This document shows positions 8,884 to 64,000 of a stretch of 64,000 bases of DNA, in pieces. Where the stretch lies: contig CAWJKZ010000004.1 in the NCBI GenBank assembly GCA_963843575.1, forward strand, positions 64,001 to 128,000. Direction: 5' to 3'. A program made the position numbers and the translations under genes. Within the stretch, counting starts at the first letter, position 1, and each line of letters begins with the position of its first letter. This DNA is from an uncultured Acidobacteriota bacterium (lineage in GTDB: Bacteria; Acidobacteriota; UBA6911). The notes below the pieces were generated by a model that saw only the letters and a program-made list of their open reading frames with translations, had not been told where the DNA came from and made no database searches.

Positions 8884-10113
8884 TCAGCGCCCGCTCTTCT
8901 GAGATCCTTCGGGACCTCGAGGCGGTCTCGGAGGTATGTCTTGCAGCTCACCCCCAGCGGTGCAAACACCCGCGGAATCCACGAATCCGACGACATCCAG
9001 GAAGCGGCCGACGGTGGCCCCCCAGGTTTCTCCTCGAACGGATTCGCGCGCATATCCTGCCATCCGACGCCACCGTTCCCGGTCTGCCACCAGGACCCTC
9101 ATCCAGTGGGCGAACTCCTCGGGATCGGCCCTGGCCGCCAGTATGCCGTTTTCCCCATTCTGGACGCGCTCCGAGGCATTCGGCACATCCGTCAGAATCA
9201 CGGGAGTGCACATCCAGAAGGCTTCGCGCAGAACTCCAGGTATCGGGCCGAAACGCATGGGAAAAACAAACAGTCGGGCCGACGCCAGCAGCTCGATGTA
9301 CTGCCGGTAATCGCCTGGATCATCCTTGCGCAAGTACCCGTGGCAGACGACATGGGCCTGGTCCCCGGGCAACTCGCCCTTCGCGACGCCCACAAGATGC
9401 AGAGTGAACGGGTCCTGTGATCTGGAATTAAAGCGCTGAAACGCGCTCAGAAGTACGTCCACGCCTCGATGATGAAAACCGCGGCCGATGAACAGAAGGT
9501 CCCGGGAGGCCTCCTTTCGGGCGATCAGTGCGCTCGAATCCGGAGAGTCCTGTTCACCTAGATTGATGCCCGCCGTTAGCAGTGCCGGATTTGCGACGCG
9601 ATAGCGGTCCCGTACGAACTCCATGCAAGCCCGATTAAAGCTGAAAACGTACTGCGCGTTTTGCAGGTTCAGCCTCTCCCTCCGGATGAGCCAGCGATCG
9701 ACCTGGCTCGGGCGCACGCCCCGTTCCGCCAGATAGTGCTCGTACGTGCGATCGCAATAGTGGGCTACCGGCACATCCGAGTAACGATAGGAAGAGAATG
9801 AAAAAGTCAGAAACAGGTTCAGATCGGCGTCGCCGAAGGCTCGGCACGTTTTTGACAGCCGGGAATTCACCAGCCGGTGGAAAGCAGGAATCCTGAGGAG
9901 CGGACGTGGCTGCACCCCGCGCCTGGAGGCTGCGCGGTTGAAGATGTCGTTCAGCACGGACAGCGCCCGTTGGCTCGATCCCCCTTCCGGAACAAGGTTG
10001 ACCCGTCTTACCTCGACCTTGCGGGAGATGAGCGCGCGCGCGAAAAAGTAGGGCACATTCGACCAGGTGTTTATGTCGTTCGAATCACCCCAGGAAAACA
10101 GATTGATCTTCAC
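8884..10113 (-). CDS. Glycosyltransferase family 4 (GT-B)
   Basis: LLFIGR, RGVDVLLSAF, LFVFP, LREAFWMCTPVILTD, VQNGENGIL; GTG start at 10113 inferred. Confidence 0.85.
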   Translation of the reverse strand: MKINLFSWGDSNDINTWSNVPYFFARALISRKVEVRRVNLVPEGGSSQRALSVLNDIFNRAASRRGVQPRPLLRIPAFHRLVNSRLSKTCRAFGDADLNLFLTFSFSSYRYSDVPVAHYCDRTYEHYLAERGVRPSQVDRWLIRRERLNLQNAQYVFSFNRACMEFVRDRYRVANPALLTAGINLGEQDSPDSSALIARKEASRDLLFIGRGFHHRGVDVLLSAFQRFNSRSQDPFTLHLVGVAKGELPGDQAHVVCHGYLRKDDPGDYRQYIELLASARLFVFPMRFGPIPGVLREAFWMCTPVILTDVPNASERVQNGENGILAARADPEEFAHWMRVLVADRERWRRMAGYARESVRGETWGATVGRFLDVVGFVDSAGVCTAGGELQDIPPRPPRGPEGSQKSGR

Positions 10114-10249
10114 AGGATTCTCGGTGGAACAGAGCGAACCCCCGCCTGTCGCCACGCGGCCCTGGGCCGTTCGAGCCGACAGGTCCGCAGGTTGCGGGCG
10201 GGTTTGTGACCGGCCGCGTTTTATTCATCGGCCGACTGCGTTGCCCGCT

Positions 10250-12517
10250 TCAGCGGGTTGCGTAATCCCACTCGGCCGCACCGCGCTCCAGAACCGCCGG
10301 CAGGTCTTCGGGCAGGAGGAATCGCTGCTCGATCAGCCGTTCCGCGGCCTTCCGGTACAGCTGCAGATACTCTTCCCTGCCCGAATAGCGCTCTTGGATC
10401 GAGAGACGCGGATCCCCGCTGGACGCCCGCTCCTCCCTGGTTTTTGCCAGGGGCAGGTAGGAGCCAACGAAGCTCACCCGCTGGGTTGGAGCTCCGATTT
10501 GCGGCGCGCGCAGGTTCCACCCGGTATACGTCGCGAGGGGAACGGCGAGTTCGGGAAGCCGAATGCCGCCCATATCCTGACCATCCGGGTCCGGGTTGGG
10601 GACGAATATCGGGAACGGCTTGCCGACGACCGGGGGTTCCTTGGCTATGACGCCCTTCCTCTTGAACTCGGGGCCGTAGTCCACGTGGTAGCCCTGGTTT
10701 GCGTCGCGCGGCAGATTGGTGGATACGACGTACGGAAAACGCATCCGGTCGAGCGGAACCAGGGATCCGTCCGACAGTTTCGGATACACGCTTGGGGGCG
10801 GCTCTACACCGCGCGTGGCCCATGCGTCGAGGTTGGTGATCATCGCGCGCCACAGCCAGCGCACGGGATTGGGATTGTTTGCGTTTTGTATGTCCTGCCC
10901 GGGGCTGGGTGGGAAGGGGGGGCTTCCGTGCTGCAAGCCTGCCTCGAAGTAGATGCGGACGTTTGCGCCGGGCGCGAGATCCCTTTTCCCGTCGGGGCTG
11001 GTGTGAATGAGCGACGCCGCCCGACCCCAGTACTCGTACGATGTGTTGGTCAGGAACATCTTGGGGAGGGTGCGCGACTTCGTCGCCGCCGCCAGCAACC
11101 CGTCCTGCTCCCCGGTCTCGGGGTCGGTCTGGACCGAGTCCGCAAACGGGAAGATGTCGGTCGGGTAGAAGAGTGCGTTCATGGGCTGCGCATCGCGCGA
11201 GGGCTGGGCGAAGCGGTGATTGAAGCTGCCTCGGCCGGCGCCCGCGACGTGCGGGATCATGCCGTCGAAAACCTGGCGCCCCCGCTCGTCCGCATTGAAG
11301 TCCTGGTAGAGCATGTGGCGCAGGAAGCGGCCGCTCTGTGAAATGCCCACCCCGTAGGCGCGCCTGATCGGTGCGACGGCCGTGGGGTCGTGTTTCAGGT
11401 ACGAGACGAAGTCACGAACCGAGGCAAACCCGAGGCCGGCGACCGCCGGGTCCTGCGCGACGTAAACCAGCTCGTAAATCCTGCCCTTCCTGAACCCGCC
11501 GCTCAGCCGGAAGGAATCGCCGCCGGGACCGAACTGCCACTGGTCCCGCGGAATTACCATGCGCGGCGCGCACGGCAGTTCGCGTACGGTCAGGACGTTC
11601 CGGTCGCTCTGTGGATCGGCAACGGGATAGCCCGTACCGCCCAGGCGGTTCTGGATGAGGTGGCCGAGCGGCATTTCGTCGCGGTCCGCGTCGAGTGTGA
11701 AATCGGTGCGCACCAACCCCCGGATACGCGTGACGCTCGGGCCGCGCGCGATCGGAGCATAGAGGCGCAGGACGTTGGGGCCGGGGACCGCATCGTGCTG
11801 CCAGCCAATCCACGCAACCGTGTAGCCTCGATTGAGAAGAAAACCGTCTCCAAAATCCTCGACGGTGGCCGGATTGAGCGAGCCGCGGCCGCCGTTGACG
11901 ATGCCGAGGATGGCCTTGCCGCCACGATTGGAGATTTCCAGCAGCAGCGCGCCGTTTCCCCTGGCAGGATCCTTGGGCCGGAGGACATAGAAGTCCGCGC
12001 TGAACTCGACCTCGCCCGCGACGTTGCGGTCGGCCATGCCGAGGTCCACGATGGAGCGGTTGTGCGGATTGTCGGGCCGCACCCTGAAATGCACCCGCCC
12101 GGAGAGCTTTTCATAGGCTCCCGCCTTGCCCCATTCCCTTCCCCCGAGCACCTCCTCGCGGAGTTGCACGTCGACCCGCGCTACCCGGGCGGGAAGCGGG
12201 TTGGCGGCGAGGGCCGCCAACAGGAGAGTTGCGGACAGGACGACAAGGTACGGAGCTCTCCCCGACGGCCGCCGCTGCACAAACCGGTCCGGCTCGGCAA
12301 GGTGCGCGGCGGCAACCGGCGAGAATGCCTCGGGGTTCGACGGATTCACGCCTTCAGGATGCCGCATTGGCTGTTGCAAGCCTCGATCGAGCTTATCCCC
12401 GACTGCCTGCCCGCACACGCAGACGCCGGTTTTCTGAAATACAGCGCGATTCCTTATCCGCCCTCGGCCGGGAGAAGTATACTTCGTGTACCAGGACCTT
12501 GACAGGCTTGCTGTCAC
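10250..12517 (-). CDS. Secreted alpha/beta hydrolase domain protein (start uncertain, probably downstream of 12517)
   Basis: GAYEKLSG, NRGGK, GISQSGRFLR nucleophile elbow, SYEYWGRAASL, GGIRLPELAVPLATYTGWN, GDPRLSIQERY; signal-like hydrophobic stretch near the N-terminus. Confidence 0.85.
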   Translation of the reverse strand: MTASLSRSWYTKYTSPGRGRIRNRAVFQKTGVCVCGQAVGDKLDRGLQQPMRHPEGVNPSNPEAFSPVAAAHLAEPDRFVQRRPSGRAPYLVVLSATLLLAALAANPLPARVARVDVQLREEVLGGREWGKAGAYEKLSGRVHFRVRPDNPHNRSIVDLGMADRNVAGEVEFSADFYVLRPKDPARGNGALLLEISNRGGKAILGIVNGGRGSLNPATVEDFGDGFLLNRGYTVAWIGWQHDAVPGPNVLRLYAPIARGPSVTRIRGLVRTDFTLDADRDEMPLGHLIQNRLGGTGYPVADPQSDRNVLTVRELPCAPRMVIPRDQWQFGPGGDSFRLSGGFRKGRIYELVYVAQDPAVAGLGFASVRDFVSYLKHDPTAVAPIRRAYGVGISQSGRFLRHMLYQDFNADERGRQVFDGMIPHVAGAGRGSFNHRFAQPSRDAQPMNALFYPTDIFPFADSVQTDPETGEQDGLLAAATKSRTLPKMFLTNTSYEYWGRAASLIHTSPDGKRDLAPGANVRIYFEAGLQHGSPPFPPSPGQDIQNANNPNPVRWLWRAMITNLDAWATRGVEPPPSVYPKLSDGSLVPLDRMRFPYVVSTNLPRDANQGYHVDYGPEFKRKGVIAKEPPVVGKPFPIFVPNPDPDGQDMGGIRLPELAVPLATYTGWNLRAPQIGAPTQRVSFVGSYLPLAKTREERASSGDPRLSIQERYSGREEYLQLYRKAAERLIEQRFLLPEDLPAVLERGAAEWDYATR

Positions 12518-12849: not shown

Positions 12850-14709
12850 TTGATCCGCGTGGATTCGCGCCAATGGGCGTCCGACAAAATCCTGCAGGAA
12901 GGAGTGGAGGATCCCTCGCAGGTGCTGAAGTTCGCGATCAGGTTCGTGAAACCATACTGGAGGTTGGTCGCCTTCGTCCTCGTCGCGATGCTCGTCGAGG
13001 CGGCGGCGAGCCTTGCCTCGCCGTGGCCGTTGAAGATCGTGCTCGACTCGGTGCTGGGGTCGCGCCCGCTGCCTGAGTGGCTTGGCTGGCTGTCCGGGCC
13101 GGCCCGGGACAAGCTCACGATCCTCAACGCGGCCGTGTGCGCCACGATCGCGTTTGCGCTGCTGCAAGCCGCCGCCGCCTATGTCAACGGCTACTACTCG
13201 ACCAGCCTGGGTCAGTGGATTGCCCACGACCTGCGCCAGACGGTCTACGGGCACCTCCAGCGGCTGTCGCTCTCGTATTACGACCGCCAGCAGACCGGTC
13301 CCCTCGTCAGCACGATCACCGACGACATCAACGCCGTCCAGGAATTCGTCTCCTCGACGCTCCTTACGATCCTGATCGACCTGCTCACCATCACCGGCAT
13401 GCTCGTCGTGATGTTCTCGCTCAACTGGAACTTCACGCTGGTGGCGCTCTCCGTGACGCCGCTGTTGGCGCTCTTCGTGTATCGGCTGCGCTACGTGCTG
13501 AAGCGAGCCACGCACGACATGCGTCGCAAGCAAAGCGAGATCGTCTCGATCGTGCAGGAAGGGTTGGGATCCATCCGCGTCGTAAAGGCGTTTGCACAGG
13601 GCGCGTTCGAGCGCCGCCGGCTCGACACCAAGAGCCTCGAGAGCGTCGACGCGGCGCTCCGTGCGCGCCGGGTGCGCTCGATGCTGGGCCCCGTCGTTAC
13701 TGTGCTCGTGGCCGTCGGCACCGGGGCCGTGCTCTGGTTCGGCTCGCGACTGGTCATCGAGGGCACCATGACGGCCGGCGCACTCATCGTGTTCCTGACG
13801 TACCTCGGCAAGCTGTTCAAGCCGATCCAGGACCTCGCGCGGGCGAGCACGAACGTCGCGCAGGCTGCCGTGGGCCTCGAGCGAGTCATGGCCGTGCTCG
13901 ACACCGACGAGCGGCTACCCCGCTCGCCGCACGCGCGCACACTCGACCACGTGAAGGGCAAGGTCGAGTTCCGCAACGTGACTTTTGGCTACGATCGCCA
14001 CCGCCCGGTCCTGAAAGAGGTCTCGTTCGCGATTCAGCCGGGCCAGATGGTCGGCCTGGTCGGGCCGAGCGGCAGCGGCAAGTCGACGCTTGTCGGGCTC
14101 ATTCCACGCTTCTACGATCCGACTTCGGGCACGGTAGCCATCGATGGCCACGATGTCCGCAACTTCACGATCAGGTCGCTGCGCCGGCAGATCGGGTTCG
14201 TCCTCCAGGACACCCAGCTGTTTCACGCGCCCCTCTGGCAGAACATCGCCTACGGCAGACCGGACGCCACACGCGACGAGATCGTCGCCGCCGCGAGGCT
14301 GGCCCACGCGCACGAGTTCATTGAGGCTCTGCCCGAGGGGTACGAGACTGTCGTCGGGCAGGGCGGCCAGACGCTCTCCGGGGGGCAACGCCAAAGGCTC
14401 GGCATCGCAAGGGCTATGGTGCGGGAGGCGTCCATCGTGATCCTCGACGAGCCGAGTTCTGGCCTCGATGCGGAGTCGGAGCGGCTCGTCTTCGACGGGC
14501 TGGGCCGGCTGCTCGAAGGCAAGACCGCGTTCATCATCGCCCACCGCCTCGCCACGGTCAGGAAAGCCGACGTCATCCTCGTCCTGGACGAGGGCCGCAT
14601 CGTCGAATGCGGCGCACACGACGAGCTTCTCGCGCAGGGCGGAATGTACTCGGTCCTGCACCGGGCCCAGGATGCGGATCACCAGGCAGCCGGGGGACCT
14701 CGCGGGTAG
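12850..14709 (+). CDS. ABC exporter, fused permease/ATPase (MsbA-like)
   Basis: N-terminal TM domain; Walker A GPSGSGKS, signature LSGGQRQR, Walker B ILDEP, IIAHRL. Confidence 0.95.
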   Translation: MIRVDSRQWASDKILQEGVEDPSQVLKFAIRFVKPYWRLVAFVLVAMLVEAAASLASPWPLKIVLDSVLGSRPLPEWLGWLSGPARDKLTILNAAVCATIAFALLQAAAAYVNGYYSTSLGQWIAHDLRQTVYGHLQRLSLSYYDRQQTGPLVSTITDDINAVQEFVSSTLLTILIDLLTITGMLVVMFSLNWNFTLVALSVTPLLALFVYRLRYVLKRATHDMRRKQSEIVSIVQEGLGSIRVVKAFAQGAFERRRLDTKSLESVDAALRARRVRSMLGPVVTVLVAVGTGAVLWFGSRLVIEGTMTAGALIVFLTYLGKLFKPIQDLARASTNVAQAAVGLERVMAVLDTDERLPRSPHARTLDHVKGKVEFRNVTFGYDRHRPVLKEVSFAIQPGQMVGLVGPSGSGKSTLVGLIPRFYDPTSGTVAIDGHDVRNFTIRSLRRQIGFVLQDTQLFHAPLWQNIAYGRPDATRDEIVAAARLAHAHEFIEALPEGYETVVGQGGQTLSGGQRQRLGIARAMVREASIVILDEPSSGLDAESERLVFDGLGRLLEGKTAFIIAHRLATVRKADVILVLDEGRIVECGAHDELLAQGGMYSVLHRAQDADHQAAGGPRG

Positions 14710-60772: not shown

Positions 60773-61225
60773 GTGCTCGACATATTCATCGATGCCGACG
60801 GCTGCCCCGTAAAGCAGGAAGTGTATCGCGTCGCGCAGCGATACAGCTTGCACGTTACTGTTGTCGCCAATTCACGGATCACCATACCGTCCGGGGATTG
60901 GGTAGATCTCGTCGTTGTTGAAGGGCAGTTCGACGCCGTCGATGACTGGATCGTGGAGCATGTCGCGGCGAACGACATCGTGATCTCGGCGGACATCCCC
61001 CTGGCGGCGCGCTGTCTCGATAAAGGAACTCTGGTTCTCGGTCACCGCGGGGATACGTTCACGCAGGATTCCATCGGCGAAGCCCTTGCGAGCCGCGCGT
61101 TGCTGGCGCATGTTCGGGAACTCGGAACAATAACGAGGGGCCCCGCTCCGTTCGACAAGCGTGATAGATCCCGTTTCCTTCAGCGCCTGGACGAGACCAT
61201 TCAGGCAGCTCGGAGGAGAGGGTGA
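60773..61225 (+). CDS. YaiI/YqxD (UPF0178) family protein
   Basis: IFIDADGCPVK, VVAN, DAVDDWI, ADIPLAARCL, GPAPF...DRSRFLQ.LD; GTG start after AGGAAGG. Confidence 0.92.
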   Translation: MLDIFIDADGCPVKQEVYRVAQRYSLHVTVVANSRITIPSGDWVDLVVVEGQFDAVDDWIVEHVAANDIVISADIPLAARCLDKGTLVLGHRGDTFTQDSIGEALASRALLAHVRELGTITRGPAPFDKRDRSRFLQRLDETIQAARRRG

Positions 61226-61453
61226 GCCGCACTCCACCACGGCTCCTCGCCGGCAACCGAACGGTTGGTGCTTCAATTCTCCTGCTCGGATTCCATCTGC
61301 TGTGGATTGCTTGATCCTGAACACAAAAACGGCTCAGAAGCTCCGCGATCCGGGAGCGATCTCGCCGCCGGGCCCACGGCCCGCGGATGCCGAGGACAGG
61401 ACAGGGCCAGACCCCTGCGCCGATGGAGCCACCTCTCAGTCCGCCCTTTACGC

Positions 61454-61483
61454 TTGCCACCTCAGAAACTGAATTGATAGCAT
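61454..61483 (+). promoter_or_regulatory. Putative sigma70 promoter of the riboswitch leader
   Basis: TTGCCA-N18-TAGCAT with an extended -10 TG; predicted +1 falls at about 61490, the riboswitch 5' end. Confidence 0.6.
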
Positions 61484-61489
61484 GGCGGC

Positions 61490-61537
61490 GGTGATGAGGT
61501 TCGCCATAACCGGCACCTGTACCTGATGGCTCCTACC
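61490..61537 (+). ncRNA. Fluoride riboswitch (crcB motif)-like aptamer
   Basis: GGUGAUGAGGUUCGCCAUAACCG...CUGAUGGCUCCUACC vs the known pattern GGCGAUGGAGUUCGCCAUAAACGC...CUAAUGACUCCUAC; P1 GGUGA/UCGCC is intact, the pseudoknot has one mismatch. Confidence 0.75.
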
Positions 61538-61564
61538 TTGAGGCAATCCTCGGGAGGGGACTGC

Positions 61565-61616
61565 AAAAACAGGAGACCCTGCCTGAGCTGAAGTTCGGGG
61601 AGGGTTTTTCTGTTTT
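61565..61616 (+). terminator. Hairpin with U-rich 3' side in the efflux operon leader (candidate expression platform)
   Basis: AAAACAGGAGACCCT-GCCTGAGCT-GA-AGTTCGGGG-AGGGTTTTTCTGTTTT. Confidence 0.55.
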
Positions 61617-61740
61617 GAGCGGTCTCATCCGGGGATGTGCCGGGGTGATCCAGCCCCACGTTCGCACGCGGCGGAACGAACCGCCCTCGGTTTGAAATCG
61701 ATTCAGTGTTTGCGCTCAATCACGATGAGGGAATTAATCC

Positions 61741-63021
61741 GTGCGCAATCTCTTTTTGATCGTAGGTTTTCTTGTAGCATCCGTTATGTGCGCACCCGCG
61801 CAGCAAGCCTCTCAAGTCCTCACATTGCAGGATTGCATCCGGCTGGCAGAGGCGGCGCCGTCGACGGTGAGCATTGCCGAACGGGAGCAGGAGATCGCGG
61901 CGCGCGATATTTCACAGGCTCGCGCCGGCTACCTCCCGCAATCTCATCTGGCGAACGGCTTCACCTACAACAGCCCCTTGCTCTACAACCGCGAGGTCTT
62001 CAGTCACCTGCCGCTGAACGGGATTCGTGAATATGCGATGCTTCTCAGCGTGAACCAGGAAGTCGACACATCCGGCCGACTGCGCGCCCAAATGTCCAGG
62101 GCGCGCATTTCACGGGAAATAGCATCCACGGGCATTACGCTGGCCCGGCGCGACCTCAAGCGGGCGGTAACGGCTTCTTATTACCAGGCTCTCCTGACAC
62201 GGCGCATCGTCCGGATTGCGCAAGAGGCGCTCCTGGAGGGCCAGGGCTTCGAGAAGCGCACCAGCCTGCTGTTCGACGGGGGAGAGGTGGCACAAGCCGA
62301 TCTCGTGAAAGCTTCGGCGCAAGCAGCCTTCCTTCAGCAGGCGGTGAATGCCGCGCAACTCGACCAGAAGCTCGCCGAGCAGGAACTGGCCTCTTTCTGG
62401 ACCGCCGACGTGGCCCGGCCACTTGCGCTGGCCGACGTTCTCGACGATGCTCCTCCCGCCCCCGACGGCGCAGCCACGCAATCCGCCCCCTTCCTCAAGC
62501 GCCCTGAATTCAGCCTTTTCGATGCGCAGCAGAGGGGCTTTCAGGCCGACGCGAGGCGCGCGCGGGCCGACCTGCTTCCGCAGTTGGGCGTAGCCTTTCA
62601 GTACGGCATCGATTCCACTGCCGTCGTGATACGTGATCGTGGCTACGCCGCCTTTCTCAACCTCACGATCCCGATCTTCGACTGGAACAGGGCGCGCTCA
62701 GCGATGCAGCAGGCACGGCTGAAAGAACAGCAAACAGAACAGACGCGCGCTATGTCCGAGCGCGCGTTTTCGAAAGAGTATCAAAACGCGCTCGCGCGGG
62801 TTAGGCAGCTCTTCGAGCAGATCCCATTGACCCAACGCCAGGCGAAACTCGCAGAGGATGATCTGCGGTTGAGCCGAATCCGCTATGAGGGCGGCGAGGG
62901 ATCGGCCCTGGACGTCGTGACCGCGCAAAATCAAGTGGCGCAGGCAAGGACGAATCAGTACGCCACGATCGCGAATTATCTCAATGCCAAGGCAGACCTG
63001 GAGGTTGCAGCCGGACGATGA
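61741..63021 (+). CDS. TolC-family outer membrane efflux protein
   Basis: Signal peptide, LTLQDCIRLA, ARAGYLPQ, LTIPIFDW, RYEGGEGSALDVVTAQ. Confidence 0.9.
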   Translation: MRNLFLIVGFLVASVMCAPAQQASQVLTLQDCIRLAEAAPSTVSIAEREQEIAARDISQARAGYLPQSHLANGFTYNSPLLYNREVFSHLPLNGIREYAMLLSVNQEVDTSGRLRAQMSRARISREIASTGITLARRDLKRAVTASYYQALLTRRIVRIAQEALLEGQGFEKRTSLLFDGGEVAQADLVKASAQAAFLQQAVNAAQLDQKLAEQELASFWTADVARPLALADVLDDAPPAPDGAATQSAPFLKRPEFSLFDAQQRGFQADARRARADLLPQLGVAFQYGIDSTAVVIRDRGYAAFLNLTIPIFDWNRARSAMQQARLKEQQTEQTRAMSERAFSKEYQNALARVRQLFEQIPLTQRQAKLAEDDLRLSRIRYEGGEGSALDVVTAQNQVAQARTNQYATIANYLNAKADLEVAAGR

Positions 63022-64000
63022 GAAAACGTAGCCTGATATTCCTCTTCCTTGTCGCACTAGCGGGCTGTTCCTCACCCGAGGAGACCCCTCCCAGTCCCGT
63101 CGTGGACGTGAAGGTCGCCAAAGCCGGGACCGCCGATGTCAAGATCACCGTGCGTGCCCCCGCCACTGTCTTTGCCCGCGAGCAAGCCAACATCAGCAGC
63201 CGTGTTACGGCGCCCATTCACAAGCTGCTCGTCCGGAAGGGAGACAACGTTGCGGCGGGCCAGGTGCTGGCGCAACTCGACAACCGGGACCTGCTTGCCC
63301 AGCAGAGAGAAGCACTGGCGGCGGTCACGGACGCCGAAGCCAACCTGCAACGCATGACCACTGGGACGCTGCCGACGGACGTCGAGCGGGCGCGCGGGCA
63401 AGTGGTCAGCGCGGAGGCGGCGCTGAACCAAGCCCAGAAGATTCACGACCGGCGGCGCCAGCTGTTCGACCAGGGAGCCATCCCCCAGCGCGAGCTGCTG
63501 GTGAGCCAGACCGAACTGGCACAGGCGAGGGCTTCCTACGAGGTGGCGAAAAATACTCTCGATCTGCTCCAGAACCAATCGCGCGACAAGGACATCCTCA
63601 TCGCCAGAAGCAAGGTGGAGCAGGCCCAGGCGCGGCTCGCTCTCGTCAGGGCGCAACTCGAGTTCACCGAGATTCGGAGCGCAACGGCGGGGACGATCAC
63701 CGAGCAGTTCATGTTTCCCGGCGACATGGCGAAACCTGACGCACCGCTTTTCACCGTCATGGATTTGAGCGTTGCAGTCGCTCGCGCCCAGATGCCGGAG
63801 AGCGCAGCCGTTGCGGTCAGAGTGGGGGAGCCGTGCACATTCGTGCCTTCCGACAACAGGGGGGCTTCATTCGGCGGCCGCGTCTCGATGGTCAACCAGG
63901 CGGTCGATCCTGCCCGCCAAACCGTCGAGGCCTGGTGCGAAATCCCGAACCCGAGGCGCCTCCTTCGGGGCGGAGTGTTTGGACAGGCAATGATCGTCAC
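63018..64000 (+). CDS. Efflux periplasmic adaptor (membrane fusion protein), 3' end outside window
   Basis: ATGA overlap with tolC; lipobox LAGC; ISSRVTAPIHKLLVRKGDNVAAGQVLAQLD, coiled coil, TEIRSATAGTI, VDPARQTVE. Absent from the ORF track because there is no stop in the window. Confidence 0.9.
   Translation, partial: MRKRSLIFLFLVALAGCSSPEETPPSPVVDVKVAKAGTADVKITVRAPATVFAREQANISSRVTAPIHKLLVRKGDNVAAGQVLAQLDNRDLLAQQREALAAVTDAEANLQRMTTGTLPTDVERARGQVVSAEAALNQAQKIHDRRRQLFDQGAIPQRELLVSQTELAQARASYEVAKNTLDLLQNQSRDKDILIARSKVEQAQARLALVRAQLEFTEIRSATAGTITEQFMFPGDMAKPDAPLFTVMDLSVAVARAQMPESAAVAVRVGEPCTFVPSDNRGASFGGRVSMVNQAVDPARQTVEAWCEIPNPRRLLRGGVFGQAMIV

Follow-up and report, generated by a model that had tools for sequence, protein, structure and literature searches.

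A fluoride riboswitch aptamer precedes a complete RND efflux operon in a soil acidobacterium

We analyzed a window of 64,000 nucleotides (nt) from the genome of an uncultured soil acidobacterium (GenBank assembly GCA_963843575.1), comprising positions 64001-128000 of its contig C4 (G000:C4 in our labels, where G, C and L mark genomes, contigs and loci). The assembly spans 6.68 Mb in 27 contigs and is 88% complete. Near the end of the window, a promoter-like site is followed by a fluoride riboswitch aptamer (crcB motif, RF01734), by two hairpins, the second of which resembles an intrinsic terminator, and by three genes that together encode a complete three-part efflux system of the resistance-nodulation-division (RND) type. 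RF01734 is the sole Rfam family above threshold across the 64-kb window. Switches of the same RNA family recur in front of orthologous operons in related genomes, where they belong to another subtype. We consider it probable that a transcriptional fluoride ON switch heads the efflux operon and that the pump plays an accessory part in a large regulon of Bryobacterales for fluoride stress. The link between switch and pump is, by its nature, a comparative-genomic association.

Aptamer, expression platform and operon

Upstream of the aptamer, a candidate promoter agrees with the sigma-70 consensus at 9 of 12 positions, and one such site was found where shuffled sequences predict 0.1. The call is a consensus match only, in a phylum whose promoters are poorly defined. 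It places the predicted transcript start at about 61489-61491, on the first base of helix P1, which begins at 61490, 7 nt past the −10-like hexamer. An earlier sequence-only reading of the window had proposed both this promoter and an aptamer that begins at the predicted +1, and our coordinates agree with it on both counts. It had also named the crcB motif and suggested a covariance-model check with RF01734, which returns the aptamer at 39.1 bits, above the gathering score of 34. A whole-genome search with the same model reproduced this score and found three fluoride switches in the assembly, and our own covariance model R2 (described below) gives the window aptamer 53.2 bits. In the cmscan alignment to the Rfam family, the letters of the single-stranded core are those of the consensus. 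The pseudoknot pairs G61496 with C61533, G61498 with U61531, G61499 with C61530 and U61500 with G61529; A61497 faces C61532, which is the A-C mismatch that the earlier reading had pointed out.

The U-rich hairpin that had been described behind the aptamer is also present, and with its U tract it is the only terminator-like site that a terminator scan finds within 61200-61800. The leader from 61481 to 61625 folds at −66.9 kcal/mol (z −4.4), and 0 of 200 shuffles folded as well. Ahead of the terminator-like element, the hairpin 61524-61565 is homologous to the tail-sequestering hairpin of a fluoride switch in a related locus, L008. Within this hairpin, the run 61552-61559 almost duplicates the 3' strand of the terminator and is thus able to pair with the terminator 5' strand, 61577-61587. 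We mimicked the docked, fluoride-bound state by barring the aptamer through 61536 from pairing; under this constraint, the antiterminator is the minimum-energy fold of a transcript ending at 61590 (−18.0 kcal/mol). Terminator scan and folding together identify a terminator that competes with an alternative fold, and we infer the following order of events. In the absence of fluoride, the 3' strand of the pseudoknot would be trapped in the hairpin 61524-61565, the terminator with its U tract would form, and transcription would halt ahead of the pump genes. The known ligand form of this riboswitch class is a Mg-fluoride cluster. Once it is bound, the pseudoknot would retain its 3' strand; the G-rich segment 61549-61559, now free, would pair with the terminator's 5' half, and RNA polymerase would continue into the pump operon.

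The operon itself opens as the sequence-only reading had described it, with a tolC-like gene for an outer-membrane factor (OMF) and a gene for a membrane fusion protein, or periplasmic adaptor, joined by ATGA: the adaptor ATG and the OMF TGA overlap by 4 nt at 63018-63021. The OMF scores 106 bits against the TolC-family subfamily model and does not reach its cut-off of 225. The suggestion that a fluc or clcF gene might lie further downstream did not survive inspection of the DNA past position 64000, which is contained in locus L002 (L002 coordinates are window coordinates minus 60000). There, the adaptor gene is followed after a gap of 2 nt by an RND permease gene that ends at L002:7321, a convergent DUF386 gene comes next, and unrelated glycosidase-like genes lie past it. 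The operon consists of these three genes (OMF, adaptor, RND), and among the genes through and past the RND gene, up to the convergent DUF386 gene, there is no fluoride channel and no fluc or clcF gene.

Compared with solved structures, the RND protein matches the zinc pump ZneA best (4k0e, 366 bits), with CusA and several drug pumps close behind at 290-334 bits (CusA about 329; AcrB, MexB and MdtB about 290-330). By sequence all of them share the same full-length RND permease fold, and in the window the adaptor and OMF genes stand in the same operon; the protein is almost equidistant from the metal pumps (ZneA, CusA) and the drug pumps (AcrB, MexB, MdtB). It scores below every curated NCBIfam subfamily cut-off (RND_permease_2, 611 bits where 1250 are required; TIGR00914, 559 of 701; TIGR00915, 465 of 940). 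Although ZneA is still the best solved match, the TIGR00914 score and a helix-4 pattern unlike that of ZneA place the protein outside the heavy-metal efflux (HME) subfamily of CzcA, CusA and ZneA. Helix 4 carries adjacent residues D401 and D402 at the position of an Asp-Gly in the aligned ZneA, whose upstream Asp has no counterpart here, a two-residue difference at this site; helix 10 carries K930 where the aligned ZneA has no lysine. D401, D402 and K930 look like an AcrB-type proton relay, as in the HAE1 (drug/amphiphile) subfamily, and presumably have the roles that they have in AcrB, although the curated scores for that subfamily (TIGR00915 and RND_permease_2) fall short of their cut-offs. 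The family of this permease appears to be a deep branch, and its sequence does not reveal the substrate.

Table 1. Features of the leader and of the efflux operon (window coordinates unless marked L002)
Feature	Coordinates	Strand	Details
Sigma-70-like promoter candidate	61454-61483	+	TTGCCA, 18-nt spacer, TAGCAT, TG upstream
Fluoride riboswitch aptamer (crcB motif, RF01734)	61481-61542	+	39.1 bits (gathering 34), E 2.6e-7, full model 1-64
Helix P1	61490-61493 with 61502-61505	+	GGUG/CGCC, 4/4 pairs, one U-G
Helix P2	61512-61515 with 61520-61523	+	GGCA/UACC, 3/4 pairs, C-A mismatch 61514 x 61521 (flagged by cmscan)
Pseudoknot (P1 loop/3' tail)	61496-61500 with 61529-61533	+	4/5 positions can pair: two G-C, two G-U; one A-C mismatch
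Ligand-free hairpin (predicted)	61524-61565	+	In minimum-free-energy fold; occupies pseudoknot 3' strand 61529-61533 and G-rich strand 61549-61559
Candidate antiterminator	61549-61559 with 61577-61587	+	11 positions, one A-G mismatch
Intrinsic-terminator-like hairpin and U tract	61577-61604, tract 61605-61616	+	12 positions, one G-G mismatch; tract TTTTTCTGTTTT
OMF gene, TolC-like, 426 aa	61741-63021	+	GTG start, GAGGGA 8 nt upstream; PF02321 136.8 bits
Periplasmic adaptor (membrane fusion protein) gene, 409 aa	63018-64000, on to window-equivalent 64247	+	HlyD_D23 88.3 bits; RND_mfp 195.9 bits (cut-off 94.9)
RND permease gene, 1023 aa	window-equivalent 64250-67321 (L002:4250-7321), beyond window	+	PF00873/ACR_tran 802.4 bits, residues 14-1018
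DUF386 gene, convergent	L002:7436-7888	-	Closes the operon

Recurrence of the switch in orthologous operons

A search of species-representative genomes with the RND protein yielded 77 loci at 56-92% identity, nearly all of them in metagenome-assembled genomes of Bryobacterales, and the OMF-adaptor-RND order is kept. Our initial covariance model, R1, built from two sequences, was too narrow and gave true switches scores of 14-24 bits; we replaced it with R2, built from 13 switches, of which 12 exceed the Rfam threshold and the remaining one, L022, scores 39.7 bits. Eight loci without an OMF match and three truncated loci were left out, so that 66 could be evaluated. With R2, a coding-strand switch lies 42-62 nt before the OMF start in 13 of these 66 orthologous operons, and L043, which has a short flank, adds a fourteenth. 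Rfam was run on 21 of the 77 loci, chosen for their matches to our own models and including all 14 pairings; 12 of the 14 OMF-preceding switches exceed the gathering score, with L043 and L064 below it. Whether orthologous operons carry the motif had been posed as a check on the sequence-only reading, and the answer is positive. Helices P1 and P2 covary across the local switches: 87.7% of cells are paired (74.7% in shuffles) and 53 cells show a double change (18.6 in shuffles), in an alignment fitted to the structure of our own model, so that these counts lean towards that structure. Judged from this set of genomes, the pairing of switch and pump appears to be conserved enough to carry meaning.

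The switches of the orthologous operons form a distinct subtype, in which the tail of the aptamer pairs with a downstream complement and a U-rich tract follows, as in a classical terminator; a compensatory change from A-U to G-C in this terminator separates L011 from L015 and L016. Because the window switch differs from this subtype, two switch types, or lineages, head the same operon family. Between 61617 and 61740 in the window, no remnant of an ortholog-type switch was found. We built a FastTree phylogeny of 65 full-length RND proteins, leaving out 12 of the 77 loci that had no full-length match. The window protein is sister to those of L008 and L009 (support 97 and 99), both of which lack a direct switch, and the three stand within a fully supported clade of 15 rows, 8 of which have a direct switch. 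Placing the presence of a switch on this tree requires at least 8 changes, and the window switch looks like a re-acquisition.

DNA homology points the same operon out as a unit. With each of L008, L009, L011, L013 and L015, homology extends over L002:1704-7321, that is, over the three genes and about 35 nt before the OMF start, ending at the RND stop codon. No synteny of the flanks was found with these five relatives, the flanks being unrelated in every case, so the neighboring genes are uninformative on function in this genome. With homology confined to the three genes and the short stretch ahead of them, the operon behaves as a cassette that gains its leader locally. It is also present in genomes of two other genera at 91-92% RND identity, and it looks like a transferable cassette.

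For a view beyond assembled genomes, a 17-letter motif of the ortholog subtype matched 103 metagenome stretches, 80 of which were examined; R2 confirmed 25 switches above 54 bits in 24 metagenome loci, and 23 of these switches had at least 250 nt downstream and could be evaluated. The genes behind them are an OMF ortholog in eight cases (43-74% identity), an RND gene directly in one, enolase in six, a dynamin-like gene in three and CrcB in three; in the other two cases nothing that could be named follows. The subtype is not exclusive to the pump, yet it stands before the pump more often than before any other gene in this sample (9 of 23), which is a biased one since the motif was chosen from pump-linked copies. 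In one metagenome locus, a switch of this subtype (L144:1452-1522, plus strand) lies 64 nt before an RND gene (75% identity, residues 3-461), and neither an OMF nor an adaptor gene separates the two.

Fluoride-switched genes and the role of the pump

In relatives, the operon often lies inside a fluoride island. By our own listing of R2 matches of at least 29.5 bits, 20 of the 77 loci have at least one switch within their stored flanks. The genes behind the other flank switches encode enolase, a Na+/H+ exchanger, dynamin-family GTPases (four loci), a CLC protein with CBS domains, a MutS-domain protein, an NADH-dehydrogenase-like subunit, pyrophosphatase, DUF190, cyclopropane fatty-acid synthases (two) and an MFS transporter. 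The four dynamin-family genes flanking the pump operon are all on the minus strand (L008:294-2072, L058:1485-3245, L023:973-2742 and L015:3-1895). Cyclopropane fatty-acid synthase genes (two loci) and a gene for a MutS-domain-V protein follow switches at L053:9316-9380 (gene 9562-10842), L033:12932-13000 (gene 13001-14293) and L042:9114-9182 (gene 9201-10808); the switched genes of L053 and L042 are directly downstream of the pump operon, and in L033 some 3.9 kb separate the end of the RND gene from the switch. There are hints here that membrane remodeling is part of the fluoride response.

The GTDB family to which the window belongs comprises 51 genomes. Downstream genes were taken from 30 of its 53 switch matches, and the 26 that were scanned comprise 11 dynamin-like genes, 8 Na+/H+ exchangers, 2 CrcB, 1 enolase, 1 serine dehydratase subunit and 3 unnamed genes. 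Three of the 29 tabulated switch places could not be oriented, two of which precede CrcB by coordinates. The dynamin-family GTPase is the commonest gene behind these switches (L091, L093, L095, L102, L104-L107, L110, L111 and L117). One family genome, 97% complete and with neither CrcB nor CLC, has six switches above threshold within 16 kb of a single contig (G013:C71:3689-19493), a dense fluoride island; one of the genes annotated there is an enolase.

The window genome has two further switches. The one on contig C12 (L007:1763-1841, 36.1 bits) has a 16-nt insertion after P1 and heads a gene for a 388-aa CPA2-type exchanger (PF00999, 1866-3032). On contig C10 (L006), an nhaA-I RNA (RF03057, 50.4 bits) at 1524-1578 is followed 590 nt on by a switch at 2167-2231, which at 45.6 bits is the genome's best. 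This switch is apparently geneless, with no plus-strand open reading frame of at least 90 aa for about 850 nt; the opposite strand presumably holds a universal-stress-protein-like fragment, noticed by eye only, and the whole looks like a decayed ion-stress locus. An enolase gene at G000:C24:93891-95148 matches the enolase that is under riboswitch control in L009 at about 80-86% identity, but in two frames that overlap at residues 134-136, as a frameshift or an error of assembly would produce; contig C25 has a second enolase (61%).

Set among these genes, the pump is most likely a fluoride-induced accessory pump, as far as genome comparison can tell. Several observations weigh against this reading. 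About four fifths of the orthologous operons lack a switch, and seven of them (the two closest, L008 and L009, and L012, L014, L019, L020 and L051, which belong to the same 15-row clade of the RND tree) gave none when searched with all filters off, the best match being 7.1 bits with an E-value of 2.9, in L008. Genome G001, of the same genus, has neither the switch nor the operon, and among the 26 scanned switch-downstream genes of the window's GTDB family there is no pump gene. The full-length leader folds to the terminator whether or not the aptamer is barred from pairing, so a working switch would need to decide kinetically, as other transcriptional riboswitches do, with the antiterminator as the putative kinetic element. 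Public sequencing runs share at most 0.15 of sampled words with the stretch, and the three contigs (151-215 nt) obtained from four runs cover the OMF gene only and leave the leader uncovered. In the one experimental case that we found, described in the available part of PMC5533749, an RND pair beside the fluoride island GI3 of Enterobacter cloacae FRM was uninduced by fluoride (0.9- and 1.4-fold). The two cases are alike in that RND adaptor and permease genes adjoin a fluoride-riboswitch island, there with crcB, enolase and uspA, and they differ in that the RND genes of E. cloacae are neighbors outside the switched unit, whereas the window switch directly heads the pump operon (same part of PMC5533749).

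The aptamer itself supplies the remaining points on that side. It has three weakened pairs (U-G in P1, C-A in P2, A-C in the pseudoknot) and scores 39.1 bits against 48.7 bits for its nearest homologue, the L008 switch, so that by sequence it may bind poorly or be in decay. The L008 switch is 76% identical to it over 87 nt, including the first platform hairpin, has none of the three weakened pairs and keeps all five pairs of the pseudoknot. It is inverted with respect to the pump operon, at a distance of 1.3 kb from the OMF gene, and the gene that it heads encodes a dynamin-family GTPase, in a locus whose RND protein is 92% identical to that of the window. The window switch could then be a relocated, decaying relic, a rearranged copy of the switch of a dynamin-like GTPase gene that is unresponsive or does not govern the pump. 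The regulon of this genome does show erosion (the orphan, geneless switch and the apparently frameshifted enolase), and no dynamin, MutS-like, pyrophosphatase or DUF190 orthologs were found in it. However, a new, well-formed terminator, a matching antiterminator strand and a promoter-like site at the right distance are not expected of a relic, and the aptamer score is still above the Rfam threshold. Moreover, another switch subtype has independently come to head orthologous operons, which shows that the linkage of switch and pump is under selection. We hold a relic to be unlikely.

The same weakened letters could be taken as a sign that the ligand has changed and that a variant aptamer senses a pump substrate other than fluoride, an option that the sequence-only reading had left standing. 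The 5' side of the window pseudoknot reads GAGG, which occurs in no other row of 36 credible local switches, 20 of which have GGAG, and the mismatch in P2 is a further departure. The differences, however, weaken pairs and create no new conserved core; the single-stranded core follows the family consensus, the family score is above threshold, and no second sequence with these letters turned up in the 77 loci or in the 80 stretches from metagenomes, so that nothing points to a conserved variant class. We regard a changed ligand as very improbable.

A different question is whether the pump is merely induced by fluoride or is itself the fluoride export route, for fluoride, HF or a metal-fluoride complex, in place of Fluc and CLC-F. 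A new export route for fluoride, metal-fluoride or organofluorine was among the options of the sequence-only reading. The 88%-complete assembly has no match to the profiles of CrcB (PF02537) or CLC (PF00654), 0 for either, and tblastn with a CrcB from the same family gave a best E-value of 0.65. Apart from the pump operon, only the gene of the CPA2-type cation/proton exchanger is switched in this genome, and the RND protein falls outside every curated subfamily. Nor is the genome alone in this respect: CrcB is present in 10 of the 51 genomes of the family (7 of the 28 high-quality ones), and 9 of the 27 family genomes with a switch above threshold have neither CrcB nor CLC over cut-off (G000, G010, G013, G014, G018, G035, G041, G043 and G050; 78-98% complete, three at 97-98%). 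On the other side, CrcB is also encoded in 9 of the 13 genomes that pair switch and pump, in one case at a distance of a few kb, and this speaks for an accessory role. An RND ortholog of at least 71% identity occurs in only 4 of the 9 exporter-less genomes, 12% of the window genome is unassembled, and D401, D402 and K930 resemble the proton-relay residues of drug and amphiphile pumps and are unlike what the alignment shows for the metal pump ZneA. Porins let a small anion pass the outer membrane without hindrance, so a three-part pump would gain little, and we know of no RND pump for an inorganic anion. Direct export by the pump is, on balance, quite unlikely, and for an accessory pump, a substrate that becomes more toxic with fluoride, such as metal-fluoride complexes or metabolites that accumulate behind fluoride-blocked enzymes, is more likely than free fluoride.

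A broader form of the export idea concerns those Bryobacterales that have switches but neither Fluc nor CLC-F: in them, the RND family, alone or with the switched cation/proton exchanger, might be the route that clears fluoride or aluminum-fluoride from the envelope. We think this improbable as well. If it were true, the family would be the first RND pump for inorganic fluoride species and an unrecognized part of fluoride resistance.

Relation to known fluoride-responsive systems

The classical fluoride riboswitch operons are the crcB/Fluc and eriC-F/CLC-F units, reportedly set out by Baker et al. in 2012. They share with the window switch the RNA family RF01734 and the ON logic of an intrinsic terminator that competes with a strand of the pseudoknot, which is plainest in the ortholog subtype. 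In the classical units, the tail and the terminator overlap directly, whereas the window platform would work as a relay of three hairpins. The genes differ as well: in the available part of the 2024 review PMC11139923, the classes under fluoride switches are channel and antiporter exporters, Na+/H+ antiporters, pyrophosphatase, HAD-fold enzymes (HAD phosphatase), enolase and formate hydrogen lyase, that is, channels, antiporters and enzymes, whereas the window switch precedes, and probably controls, a three-part RND pump. The terms RND, tripartite and outer membrane have zero occurrences in that part of its text (PMC11139923). The fluoride super-regulon is described without pumps in the accessible portion of PMC7266159, and the portion of a 2025 preprint available to us still knows of no resistance mechanism other than export by CrcB and describes a benzoate transporter that moonlights (10.1101/2025.10.13.682028). 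Full-text searches returned no paper in which a fluoride riboswitch is connected with an RND pump or a three-part pump, with the limit that the gene lists of Baker et al. 2012 and of the 2021 Annual Review on fluoride exporters may name RND genes. In the window, a riboswitch class that is already known would control genes of a class for which we found no such report.

Since a riboswitch reveals which signal its genes respond to, a pump whose own sequence is silent about its substrate gains a physiological context, that of fluoride stress. The pairing of switch and pump, found in a genome in which we detected no known fluoride exporter and in related genomes, points to a branch of bacterial fluoride defense for which we found no description. 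It may also be of relevance to the engineering of fluoride-tolerant strains for the degradation of organofluorines. For the soil and peat Acidobacteriota themselves, a recurring envelope pump that would be induced by fluoride suggests that fluoride stress has a periplasmic or envelope side in acid, aluminum-rich soils.

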